32,000 nucleotides of DNA from Promethearchaeota archaeon. Lineage in GTDB: Archaea > Asgardarchaeota > Lokiarchaeia > Sigyniarchaeales > SOKP01. Below the pieces are notes generated by a model that ran no database searches, was not told the DNA's origin, and was given only the letters and a program-made list of their open reading frames with translations. The translations under genes were made by a program, and so were the position numbers. Numbering within the stretch: position 1 is the first letter of the stretch; every line of letters begins with the position of its first letter. Below are positions 311-2,503 of this stretch, piece by piece. The stretch is from positions 420,001 to 452,000 of the forward strand of contig JAUWGH010000002.1 in assembly GCA_030606485.1 (NCBI GenBank). Reading direction: 5' to 3'.

Positions 311-2503
311 ATGGAACAGGAAAAAACAATGTTAAAACCTGTAAAACCTCCAATCAAACCTATAGCTGTTAAAGAACCAGCTAAAGTTAAGAAAATAAAA
401 GAGAAGAAAATAACGATGACATTAGAAAAAAATCTTAAAAGTCTTGTTCATTTTATGGCATTTCCAGGGCCTCGATTAGGTAGGAGCACAATGTATGGTG
501 AAGCTCCTGAAAAGTATATGCTAGATTCAATAAATTGGATCGGAAGGCACGGCTTTTTTAAAGGAATTGAGATCACCCTCATAAAAGATCACGAGATCCG
601 ACAGAAAGTTATTAATTTATTAAAAAAATACAAGTTTTACATTACATTTTGCGCTCAACCAATTCAACTAGTTAATGAGGATAATTTAATTGCAGAAACA
701 GATATTAGTTCAATTGATGAGTTAGAAAGAACTAACGCTGTTAATCGTCTTAAAAGTTATTTAATTGAGGCCTATGAATTTGGAGCAAGTAATTTCTGTT
801 TTTTAAGCGGTAAGGATCCAGGGACTGAGAATGGATTACGTTTAAGACGACAGGCAACACAATCTTTAATTTGTTCAATTCATGAAATTTGTGTTTATAA
901 TAAAAGTATTGCTAAAAAATTGAATAAAAAGCCTATGAAAATTACATTGGAAACGTTTGACAGGCTTTCAGAGAATAATTGTAAAAATCAATTGATAGGA
1001 CCTTCTGATGAAGCAAGAGAGCTTGCTGAAATAGTTAGAAACAATTATGGTCATGATATTTTCGGCATTTTATATGATTTGGGTCATATGTTTTTATTAA
1101 GGAGTGGATTTGATCATGAAGAAGTAAATGTATTGCGTTCGCTTGCTCCATATTTAAATTTTATTCATATTGCAAATACAATTATTGACAAGGAACATCC
1201 TCAATATGGCGACTCTCATGTGGGGATGAACCATCCAGATGGAGCTGTAACTTCCGAAGTACTAGCAAATTTTGTAAAAACATTAAATGAGATTAATTAT
1301 AAAAATCCAATTGGTTTTGAGTTTATGCCACAAGGAAGACAATTAAGTGAATCTGTCGTTAATATTGCAGTTGCATCGTATAAGGAAGCAGCTGAACAGA
1401 TTGATGTGAATTATGCTTTAGGGTCATATAGATTTAAGACACGTAGATTTCTTCCTGAAAAGATTTTCTATATGATTACAGATTACAAACTAAGTAAGTA
1501 TGAGGTTATTCGGCAGGAAATGAAAAATCGGCAGAGAAGAGAAAGACCTTGGGGAGAAAATTTGATCATTATAGCTGCAGATCATCCGGCGAGAAGAGTT
1601 ACTCGAGTGGGAGAAAATGATTTAGCGATGGGAGATAGACAACAGTATTTAGGTAGAATTTTGAGAGTTCTAATTCATGACCGAGTTGATGGAGTAATGA
1701 CTACACCAGATATTATGGATGATTTATTTCTGATTAATTATTTATATAAAGAAAATGGTGGGGAATCATTTTTGGATAATAAGATATTGTTGGGATGCAC
1801 TAATCGAGGTGGATTGTCCGGGTCTTCTTACGAAATGGATGATTTATTAACAGCATACACAGTGGAAGATATTATAGAGTGCAATTTAGATGGTGCAAAA
1901 ATGATGTTCAGAATTGATTTAGAAACACGTCAAGCAAGATATAGTCAAAGGACAATTGAAATATGTTCAAAAATCATTAGAGCATGTAATAGAAACAGTA
2001 TTCCTGCGTTTGTTGAGCCTTTACCAGTATATAGAGAAACAGATGGAACTTATGTTGTTCAATATAATGCCGATGATATAATTAAAGCTATTGGGATTGC
2101 AACGGCGTTAGGCGGCTCTTCAAGTAATATTTGGTTAAAAATTCCATATGTTGCAAATTTTGAGCAAGTCGTAAGGAGCTCAAGTAACCCAATTTTAATG
2201 TTGGGCGGAGAGAGTACCGGTAATCCAACGGATATTTTGGAAAACTTTGAAAGAGGTTTAGGTGCTGGTCCAAATGTAAAAGGATGTTTAGTGGGTAGGA
2301 ATTTATTATATCCTGGATTCGACGATCCATACGCTTCTGCAGTTGCTGTATCACGAATACTTCATGATTATGATAATACAGAAAAGGCGGTAAAAGAATT
2401 AGCGAAAAATCGAGGAAAATACATGGATTTTTTCACCTCAATAATATTGGGAATTCATACAGAAGCTGAGAAAGAGTTTAGTTATCCTTCAGAATTAACT
2501 TAA
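311..2503 (+). CDS. Fusion of a sugar-phosphate isomerase/epimerase TIM barrel (xylose isomerase-like/AP endonuclease 2 fold) and a Cgl0159-like class I aldolase
   Basis: The N half has the metal-binding pattern LETFDR / YDLGH / IHIAN / GDSH / GFEF. The C half has IIAADHPARRV, AMGDR, VDGVMTTPD, NRGGLSG, GAKMMFRID, FVEP, WLKIP (candidate Schiff-base Lys), MLGG and GCLVGRNLLYP. A Lys/Pro-rich low-complexity stretch opens the protein. Confidence 0.75.
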   Translation: MEQEKTMLKPVKPPIKPIAVKEPAKVKKIKEKKITMTLEKNLKSLVHFMAFPGPRLGRSTMYGEAPEKYMLDSINWIGRHGFFKGIEITLIKDHEIRQKVINLLKKYKFYITFCAQPIQLVNEDNLIAETDISSIDELERTNAVNRLKSYLIEAYEFGASNFCFLSGKDPGTENGLRLRRQATQSLICSIHEICVYNKSIAKKLNKKPMKITLETFDRLSENNCKNQLIGPSDEARELAEIVRNNYGHDIFGILYDLGHMFLLRSGFDHEEVNVLRSLAPYLNFIHIANTIIDKEHPQYGDSHVGMNHPDGAVTSEVLANFVKTLNEINYKNPIGFEFMPQGRQLSESVVNIAVASYKEAAEQIDVNYALGSYRFKTRRFLPEKIFYMITDYKLSKYEVIRQEMKNRQRRERPWGENLIIIAADHPARRVTRVGENDLAMGDRQQYLGRILRVLIHDRVDGVMTTPDIMDDLFLINYLYKENGGESFLDNKILLGCTNRGGLSGSSYEMDDLLTAYTVEDIIECNLDGAKMMFRIDLETRQARYSQRTIEICSKIIRACNRNSIPAFVEPLPVYRETDGTYVVQYNADDIIKAIGIATALGGSSSNIWLKIPYVANFEQVVRSSSNPILMLGGESTGNPTDILENFERGLGAGPNVKGCLVGRNLLYPGFDDPYASAVAVSRILHDYDNTEKAVKELAKNRGKYMDFFTSIILGIHTEAEKEFSYPSELT

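Follow-up and report, generated by a model that had tools for sequence, protein, structure and literature searches.

The stretch analysed here, called the window below, comprises 32,000 nucleotides of a Promethearchaeota archaeon (Lokiarchaeia; assembly GCA_030606485.1, contig JAUWGH010000002.1, positions 420,001 to 452,000 of the forward strand). Near its left end lies a gene in which a xylose-isomerase-like barrel is fused to a barrel of the Cgl0159-like aldolase family, and this fusion is the subject of the present analysis. It occupies a single uninterrupted open reading frame (ORF) of 730 amino acids (stop codon 2501-2503), whose match in its own genome, labelled G000, is 100% (G000:C1:420311-422500). 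The gene is organized as follows, with triosephosphate isomerase abbreviated as TIM.

311-2503, plus strand: whole ORF, 730 amino acids including a possible N-terminal extension (ORF, Pfam, own-genome match)
311-415, plus strand: Lys/Pro-rich extension of 35 residues, translation uncertain (homologues start at M36)
416-1405, plus strand: N half, residues 36-365, predicted metal-dependent xylose-isomerase-like (ketose 3-epimerase-like) TIM barrel (PF01261, structure model, Foldseek, NCBIfam)
1406-2440, plus strand: C half, residues ~366-710, predicted Cgl0159-like class I aldolase barrel with N-terminal helices (PF22649, 3fok, stand-alone homologues)

Both halves exceed their Pfam gathering cut-offs. 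PF01261 (AP_endonuc_2) covers residues 83-342 with 50.2 bits against a cut-off of 31.1, and PF22649 (Cgl0159-like) covers residues 417-678 with 232.7 bits against 27 (E 5.4e-69), extending over profile positions 2-247 of 251. An AlphaFold model of residues 36-730, which draws on 92 homologues, reached a predicted local distance difference test score (pLDDT) of 93.2 and a predicted template modelling score (pTM) of 0.89. Because of these values, both barrels and their mutual arrangement are confidently predicted to form one two-barrel body. In alignments with stand-alone homologues, those of the C half set in at query residues 367-375 (spanning 367-710) and those of the N half stop near residues 340-360, which places the junction at about residues 365-375. 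The initial annotation, made from the sequence alone, had described one uninterrupted ORF with two domains joined between residues 365 and 410; this description holds, with the junction now narrowed by the boundaries of stand-alone homologues.

With few exceptions, homologues begin at the position corresponding to M36 (nucleotide 416), and the Lys/Pro-rich first 35 residues are seen only in the same genus and two close relatives. Judging from these alignments, the protein probably comprises 695 amino acids from M36, and the N-terminal extension may not be translated. Since DNA of the same genus is 96% identical both inside and upstream of the extension stretch, comparison within the genus does not discriminate between the two starts.

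The C half is most similar to Cgl0159 of Corynebacterium glutamicum (PDB 3fok, PF22649), both by sequence (E 1.3e-48) and in Foldseek comparison of models, where 3fok ranks at the top (E 3.1e-25, target-normalised TM-score (TMt) 0.93, root-mean-square deviation 2.0). Both share the WxKxP lysine, the ADHPAR motif and the GG and GRT-N loops. Cgl0159 differs in that it is a stand-alone protein of ~300 amino acids, solved by structural genomics and deposited as an "uncharacterized protein", whereas the fusion adds the N-terminal epimerase/isomerase barrel. The next Foldseek ranks, with the same barrel and TMt of 0.75-0.80, are held by DhnA-type aldolases: the 2-amino-3,7-dideoxy-D-threo-hept-6-ulosonate (ADH) synthase of Methanocaldococcus jannaschii (MJ0400, 2qjg), the class I fructose 1,6-bisphosphate (FBP) aldolase of Thermoproteus tenax (1w8s) and Escherichia coli LsrF (3gkf). 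The following features can be assigned to this half.

1580-1585, plus strand: D424-H425 (AADHPAR), strand-1 motif common to DhnA-type aldolases (invariant; weak HMMER segment against LsrF LAFDH)
1898-1912, plus strand: K530 and R534 (DGAKMMFR), strand 4, family-specific invariant basic residues (conservation; Ser/Asn in paralogues)
2138-2140, plus strand: K610 (WLKIPY), predicted Schiff-base lysine (hhalign 98.3%, conservation, strand of the model)
2204-2302, plus strand: G632-G633 and G662-R663-N664, putative phosphate-binding loops (aligned with AGG and GRN of ADH synthase, T. tenax FBP aldolase and LsrF)

The own genome codes for four DhnA-type paralogues, two of which score as ADH synthases over the curated cut-off. 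The C half and 36 stand-alone relatives were combined into a profile and aligned by hhalign with a profile of these four paralogues. In this alignment (probability 98.3%) K610 falls on the Schiff-base lysine of DIVKT(N)Y on the equivalent strand, Y613 falls on the tyrosine three residues later, and G632-G633 and G662-R663-N664 fall on the phosphate loops. K610 is kept in at least 90% of fusion sequences and lies on strand 572-577 of the model. A HMMER profile register against PDB, which puts the known lysine four residues before K610, was rejected in favour of the hhalign register; it was taken as an artefact because the shift sits beside a loop insertion and a compensating gap. It is thus reasonable to regard the C half as a predicted Schiff-base (class I) aldolase using K610.

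On the other hand, the C half shares only 17-19% identity with DhnA-type aldolases, and its scores are far below equivalog cut-offs. Its best, weak NCBIfam matches are to ADH synthase (TIGR01949, 33.5 bits against a cut-off of 299.45); archaeal class I FBP aldolase (NF040816) is matched with 30.6 bits against 430. By these comparisons it is assigned to PF22649 and to the class I aldolase superfamily, and not to the ADH synthase or FBP aldolase equivalogs. Peculiar to the fusion family are the invariant K530 and R534, where the own-genome ADH synthase paralogues carry Ser and Asn, and a near-invariant E569, two residues before L571. As extra basic residues, K530 and R534 would suit a carboxylated or otherwise anionic substrate. 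No Pfam match to PF01116, the class II FBP-aldolase family to which IolJ belongs, was found in the protein, and its relationship to Bacillus subtilis IolJ is at most a functional analogy.

The N half was compared by means of a profile of its own domain and 14 stand-alone relatives. This profile matches D-tagatose 3-epimerase 8xix (E 1.8e-11), Art22, D-psicose 3-epimerases and Thermotoga maritima TM0416. Four candidate active-site residues were located.

950-952, plus strand: E214 (LETFD), candidate catalytic/metal Glu (on Glu of IETLNR in 8xix; nearly invariant)
1076-1078, plus strand: D256 (LYDLGH), candidate metal ligand (on Asp of MLDTFH in 8xix; invariant in the A4 alignment)
1166-1168, plus strand: H286 (FIHIAN), candidate metal ligand (on His of QLHIGE in 8xix; invariant in the A4 alignment)
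1319-1321, plus strand: E337 (GFEFMP), putative second catalytic Glu (nearly invariant; last strand of the model)

Three members of the putative Glu-Asp-His-Glu tetrad (E214, D256 and H286) are aligned with 8xix, and E337 comes from conservation and position in the model only. The N half is accordingly best described as a predicted metal-dependent enediol isomerase or epimerase. Taken with K610 and the phosphate loops of the C half, the kept Glu, Asp and His agree with the initial annotation, in which both domains looked catalytic and the lysine of WLKIP was named as the Schiff-base residue.

Which reaction the N half catalyses is less evident from its relatives. The best curated family is IolO (NF041099), matched by 12 of 15 stand-alone homologues (best E 6e-18); the own domain reaches 22.5 bits (E 5.7e-5) against a cut-off of 300 and, unlike IolO, is fused to an aldolase. 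The hydroxypyruvate isomerase model TIGR03234 gives weak matches in five of the 15 homologues (best E 1.8e-5), and the OtnI model is matched by two. In Foldseek comparison of the N domain modelled alone (pLDDT 90.6), all top matches are ketose 3-epimerases, TM0416/IolO having the highest TMt (0.79-0.81), and the Hyi/OtnI-like structure 1k77 takes rank 50. The fold is thus shared with IolO/TM0416 and with D-tagatose, D-psicose and L-ribulose 3-epimerases, including aligned Glu, Asp and His ligands. Hyi and OtnI belong to the same superfamily and share enediol chemistry. IolO, a 5-keto-L-gluconate epimerase, acts on a keto-uronic acid; this type of barrel is therefore known to work on such compounds. 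VIA-align Z scores are 28 for xylose isomerases, 26-27 for epimerases, 24.6 for 1k77, 23.6 for IolI and 23.1 for IolE, and all lie between 20 and 28 across the superfamily including endonuclease IV. Because they are so alike, the fold by itself does not assign a reaction.

We wondered how widespread this organization is. A word-indexed search gave at least 285 homologous clusters, and both Pfam domains are present in every one of the best 120 of these, for which domains were listed. Their sources comprise Promethearchaeota/Lokiarchaeota, Sigyn- and Hodarchaeota, Caldanaerobius fijiensis, Limnochordia and other Bacillota. Relatives were also found in 178 species genomes in a scan of one genome per species, among them Thermotogota (with cultured Athalassotoga saccharophila), Omnitrophota, Planctomycetota, Latescibacterota and Bacteroidota. 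Since the same architecture recurs in both surveys, the fusion is neither a chance product nor an assembly join of two genes, an artefact that the initial annotation had considered. That annotation knew both domains only as stand-alone proteins and suggested a search for the fusion in other Asgard genomes; such fusions do exist there, but they are also common in public data and already carry automatic names of both parts ("Cgl0159 family (beta/alpha)8-fold protein", "DhnA family aldolase/sugar phosphate isomerase"). While the two folds are familiar and databases contain the fusion, a reaction has been assigned neither to the Cgl0159 family nor to the fusion.

To specify relationships between the fusions, a maximum-likelihood tree of 70 full-length sequences was constructed and rooted at midpoint. 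Archaeal fusions form one clade (support 100), sister to a Thermotogota clade (97), within bacterial diversity; the root being a midpoint only, the tree does not give the direction of transfer. Among 81 Lokiarchaeia genomes, the fusion gene or its C half occurs in 17 (six of 19 genera): nine carry the full-length fusion and eight the C half only. One genus yielded nothing but a stand-alone C half (~350-380 amino acids). This patchy occurrence indicates an accessory rather than a core gene. Most carriers are bacteria, and with the archaeal clade lying among them, the suggestion of an undescribed "archaeal" step does not stand. To Asgards the fusion adds a bacterial-type catabolic module gained patchily, and not an ancestral archaeal trait.

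To characterize genomic context, ORFs were called and clustered in 79 loci of species genomes (labelled L below), and recurrent clusters were annotated. Since high-GC loci (e.g. L044) are garbled by the simple ORF caller, context counts are lower bounds; the contexts of the two most divergent fusion representatives are too short to be informative. In Lokiarchaeum ossiferum (L031), the fusion is followed by genes for an iron-containing alcohol dehydrogenase, a PfkB kinase and the uronate isomerase UxaC. A Firmicutes group has the order KduI/IolB cupin, fusion, DeoR regulator, 2-hydroxyacid dehydrogenase and FGGY kinase, with an ABC sugar transporter and a LacI regulator nearby. In ten Thermotogota loci, the fusion is preceded by DeoR and by an unannotated gene of 425 amino acids, the product of which is closely similar to the BH0493 uronate isomerase of Bacillus halodurans (E 1e-161, PDB 2q08). 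Three unrelated uronate isomerase families thus stand beside the fusion in three distant lineages, and this is the strongest functional clue.

Other neighbours recur as well. Kinases near fusions include ADP-dependent phosphofructokinase (seven loci) as well as FGGY, PfkB and ROK kinases, and DeoR is found in 20 bacterial fusion loci. The Athalassotoga operon continues after the fusion with a PCC-domain gene, an ABC solute-binding protein and two permeases, a PIG-L deacetylase and glycoside hydrolases (GH) of GH116-like, GH2 and GH4 type. Loki loci with the C half alone contain GH4, LacZ-like GH2 and a GFO/IDH/MocA oxidoreductase, and a YdjC-like gene occurs in several Loki loci. A split form also exists and has neighbours like those of the fusion; it consists of Cgl0159-like, DeoR, AP_endonuc_2 and 2-hydroxyacid dehydrogenase genes beside a class II aldolase and a phosphoglucose isomerase (PGI)-like SIS protein. 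The position directly after the fusion is always taken by a ~147-amino-acid PCC/DUF296 gene in Mesoaciditogaceae (L053:12144-12587 and eight other loci) and by a ComB-like 2-phosphosulfolactate phosphatase gene in a Bacillota group.

Searches with Pfam models detected no Mannitol_dh-type UxuB/UxaB in five fusion-bearing genomes, and the complete L. ossiferum chromosome (L031/L005) is without UxuA, UxaA and a Mannitol_dh-type reductase despite its UxaC. On the fusion tree, context types are intermixed: UxaC-linked L. ossiferum (L031) is sister to an aminotransferase-linked Loki sequence (L026), and loci combining KduI with FGGY kinase or 2-hydroxyacid dehydrogenase with FGGY kinase nest among aminotransferase-linked Bacillota. 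This argues for one enzyme function with differing partners.

One of these partners, a class I/II aminotransferase, adjoins the fusion in 29 of 76 loci, being placed directly upstream of it in Loki, Sigyn and Bacillota genomes. In a PVC/Omnitrophota-like group it lies directly downstream in a form of ~570 amino acids (L067:12113-13816, L076:12142-14863 and relatives), with an N-terminal extension of ~170-200 amino acids lacking a Pfam match, and is followed by a gene that passes the ThrB homoserine kinase cut-off. In the own genome, a metallo-beta-lactamase-fold gene and a 156-amino-acid ORF separate it from the fusion.

G000:C1:416474-417661, same strand as the fusion: partner aminotransferase, 2.6 kb upstream

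NCBIfam places this protein nearest to aspartate aminotransferases (AspAT), below all equivalog cut-offs. Fusion-adjacent aminotransferases are 46-68% identical to the own copy (Bacillota 52-56%, PVC-like 46-49%), having diverged in step with the fusion. Other AspAT-like genes of the own genome are only 23-35% identical to it, besides one duplicate of 75% identity (G000:C8:162172-163359) that is found in a same-genus genome too; its surroundings (acyl-CoA synthetases, M20 peptidase, transporter of the major facilitator superfamily, GH3) gave no pathway clue. Using a threshold of E <= 1e-90 in the same 81 Lokiarchaeia genomes, an orthologue was scored in seven of nine genomes with full-length fusion, in none of eight with the C half only and in one of 64 with neither; the two exceptions among the nine are fragmented assemblies. 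Because the genomes are related, and four genera carry both genes, these counts overstate independence. Presence of the aminotransferase follows the N half. As judged from sequence comparison, the aminotransferase is a dedicated partner, co-inherited with the fusion across domains.

We tentatively propose, with rather less than even confidence, that the fusion cleaves a phosphorylated keto-uronate to dihydroxyacetone phosphate (DHAP) and tartronate semialdehyde, the latter being converted to hydroxypyruvate and further to serine or glycerate, a route undescribed so far. Where encoded beside the fusion, a uronate isomerase and a sugar kinase would first make the phosphorylated keto-uronate. The C half would then cleave a 5-keto-aldonate 6-phosphate, most likely D-fructuronate or D-tagaturonate 1-phosphate, to DHAP and tartronate semialdehyde, and the N half would most likely convert tartronate semialdehyde to hydroxypyruvate. 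In the own genome, the AspAT-like partner would turn hydroxypyruvate into L-serine; in other lineages, 2-hydroxyacid dehydrogenase or iron-containing alcohol dehydrogenase would make glycerate.

The proposal draws on established chemistry. 2-Deoxy-5-keto-D-gluconate 6-phosphate (DKGP), presumably the substrate of Cgl0159, is a 5-keto-aldonate 6-phosphate cleaved to DHAP and malonate semialdehyde, and D-fructuronate 1-phosphate equals DKGP with an added C2 hydroxyl, its C3/C4 configuration being that of DKGP and FBP. Tartronate semialdehyde is turned by enediol isomerases into hydroxypyruvate, an alpha-keto acid, which AspAT-type enzymes can aminate to serine and 2-hydroxyacid dehydrogenases can reduce to glycerate; Hyi activity is the best fit to these two partners. 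Every recurrent neighbour finds a place in the proposed chain (uronate isomerase, kinase, fusion and aminotransferase, dehydrogenase or iron-containing alcohol dehydrogenase), and an N half that makes hydroxypyruvate would explain why the aminotransferase follows this half. The aminotransferase and 2-hydroxyacid dehydrogenase partners fit cleavage before isomerisation at least as well as the reverse order, which the initial annotation had proposed. Like the Ashwell pathway (UxaC, UxuB/UxaB, UxuA/UxaA, KdgK, KdgA), the proposed route would begin at a uronate isomerase, make use of a kinase and an aldolase and lead to triose-level compounds. In contrast to it, direct cleavage of the phosphorylated keto-uronate would bypass reduction and dehydration to 2-keto-3-deoxygluconate, yielding DHAP and a C3 acid instead of pyruvate and glyceraldehyde 3-phosphate. 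A literature search for a route from uronates to DHAP and tartronate semialdehyde found none.

Several observations weigh against cleavage of a keto-uronate phosphate followed by hydroxypyruvate formation. The immediate neighbours of the fusion in the window are housekeeping genes, and neither UxaC nor BH0493-type nor KduI/IolB (PF04962) genes were found in the own genome, which is 100% complete by markers. Aminotransferase-linked and isomerase-linked fusion loci do not overlap, and in genomes with uronate-isomerase-linked fusions no aminotransferase orthologue was found, the best matches being 36-40% identical. Because of this mutual exclusion, the aminotransferase is possibly an alternative supplier rather than a consumer. 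A. saccharophila retains UxuA elsewhere in its genome. As for the enzyme itself, the N half is nearer to ketose 3-epimerases and IolO than to hydroxypyruvate isomerase in both sequence and fold, and the own N domain gives no match to TIGR03234 at E <= 0.01, which weakens membership in the Hyi family, not the functional proposal. In the C half, L571 takes the place of the strand-5 general-acid tyrosine of DhnA aldolases (MMYPRG). Finally, a literature search on the family name "Cgl0159" found nothing relevant.

Other explanations start from the same two barrels. Nearness of the N half to IolO and the ketose 3-epimerases, TM0416 above all, is what would be expected if it acted first, as an IolO-like 3-epimerase resetting the stereochemistry of a keto-uronate or its phosphate before cleavage by the C half, with the C3 aldehyde handled by other enzymes; a BH0493-type isomerase would then supply D-tagaturonate. 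We consider this unlikely, if less so than the readings that follow. It leaves the link between aminotransferase and N half (none of eight genomes with the C half only) unexplained, and by stereochemical reasoning D-fructuronate 1-phosphate agrees with DKGP and FBP in its C3/C4 configuration from the start, whereas a C3 flip of tagaturonate does not yield it; besides, VIA-align Z scores fail to separate epimerases from isomerases. The likeness to D-psicose and D-tagatose 3-epimerases would also suit a route for neutral rare ketoses, with an N half that epimerises ketohexoses or ketose phosphates at C3 and a C half that splits a ketose 1-phosphate into DHAP and a neutral aldehyde. ROK kinases, a PGI-like SIS protein and a class II aldolase near the fusion in Caldanaerobius and Limnochordia, together with frequent DeoR regulators, are in line with such a route. 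Yet it is improbable, as three adjoining uronate isomerase families would be unexplained, the aminotransferase and 2-hydroxyacid dehydrogenase partners need an alpha-keto acid, and the invariant extra Lys and Arg of the aldolase barrel would have no role.

Inositol catabolism, in which an IolE/IolI-like N half would be joined to a DKGP aldolase releasing DHAP and malonate semialdehyde, is suggested by the clear relationship of the C half to Cgl0159, the family of which presumably replaces IolJ in actinobacterial iol clusters, and by IolB/KduI-family and GFO/IDH/MocA oxidoreductase genes near some fusions. We regard it as quite improbable. No IolD- or IolC-type cluster was seen beside any fusion examined, including that of the window, and no IolB/KduI family gene occurs in the own genome; malonate semialdehyde offers no alpha-hydroxyl to an isomerase and is not an AspAT-type substrate, and IolI and IolE (Z 23.6 and 23.1) are not the closest folds. 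Of the sugar or inositol degradation step suggested in the initial annotation, the sugar part can be kept in the form of a sugar-acid role, which fits the neighbourhoods and hexuronates, and the link to inositol is weak. A further order of events would put the aminotransferase first: it would convert a hydroxylated phosphorylated amino acid (e.g. 4-phosphohydroxythreonine) to a 2-oxo acid, the N half would shift the carbonyl as OtnI does and the C half would release DHAP via a Schiff base. Mutual exclusion of aminotransferase and uronate isomerases, as expected of alternative suppliers, the bacterial group with fusion, long aminotransferase and ThrB-passing gene, and the two of 15 N-half homologues touching the OtnI model all speak for it. 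It is nevertheless very improbable, since the sister orthologues L031 (UxaC-linked) and L026 (aminotransferase-linked) would need very different substrates, ThrB adjacency is limited to one clade and may concern a housekeeping gene, and no known abundant substrate fits. An ADH-synthase-like enzyme of the archaeal aromatic amino acid pathway, using aspartate semialdehyde, would agree with the best NCBIfam matches of the C half, weak as they are, with the presence of 3-dehydroquinate (DHQ) synthase II in the genome and with aspartate-family genes (AspAT-like, ThrB, diaminopimelate dehydrogenase) near some fusions. We rejected this reading as nearly excluded by the two canonical ADH synthase genes already present; the fusion is moreover patchy (17 of 81 Lokiarchaeia), unlike a core biosynthetic gene, and its bacterial carriers do not use the archaeal aromatic pathway.

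Returning to the cleavage of keto-uronate phosphates, a broader version of this proposal is more doubtful: the fusion might be the core of a phosphorylative hexuronate pathway that replaces the Ashwell route in Thermotogota, many Bacillota and some Asgards, its aminotransferase-fusion module having moved between bacteria and Asgards as a unit.

Further genes of the window were inspected as well. The fusion is neighboured by genes for a proteasome beta subunit, a ThuA/GIFT-like protein, radical SAM enzymes and an FKBP. Proteasome beta subunit, ThuA/GIFT-like, radical SAM and helix-hairpin-helix (HhH)-FKBP26-type isomerase genes (2599-7067) follow the fusion or the C half in many Loki genomes, a gene for a threonyl-tRNA synthetase editing domain being often inserted in the proteasome-FKBP block. 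This is a conserved Loki synteny with no evident functional link to the fusion. Just upstream of the fusion, on the opposite strand, lies an ORF of 92-96 amino acids (window 1-88, continuing upstream; L094:11801-12088, minus strand), which recurs as one cluster at this position in 12 Loki loci and lacks a Pfam match; this ORF could represent either a small divergent gene that is conserved or a by-product of A-rich DNA. Positions 8158-9057 encode a 299-amino-acid ATP-grasp protein, with the inositol 1,3,4-trisphosphate 5/6-kinase ATP-grasp domain as best Pfam match (E 7e-17). Another xylose-isomerase-like TIM barrel gene (10591-11433, E 1e-34) lies between radical SAM and uroporphyrinogen decarboxylase (URO-D)-like genes (9865-12749, minus strand); AP_endonuc_2 genes in the own genome number six in all. 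A radical SAM protein with HMPTM-type N-terminal zinc ribbon (14961-16730, E 8.6e-22) is followed by a 385-amino-acid ORF without Pfam match (16981-18138). The ORF at 18326-20515 (729 amino acids) was rejected as a paralogue of the fusion, being archaeal elongation factor 2 (aEF-2), and the DUF362 gene of the window is unrelated, at the level searched, to DUF362 of the Caldanaerobius cluster. Elsewhere in the genome, the ADH synthase pair and DHQ synthase II are located at G000:C10:859631-860407, C6:62462-63244 and C11:10309-11388, indicating that the archaeal aromatic amino acid route is present with its first enzyme duplicated.

The fusion is not an invention specific to Asgards or to inositol. 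Hundreds of species carry it, including cultured A. saccharophila, C. fijiensis and L. ossiferum, and as a widespread, presumably bifunctional enzyme it probably defines a new route for acidic sugars. If true, this would provide a new short way from plant or host uronic acids to central metabolism and serine, would explain the presence of UxaC in L. ossiferum without the remaining canonical pathway, and would give the Cgl0159 family a function.

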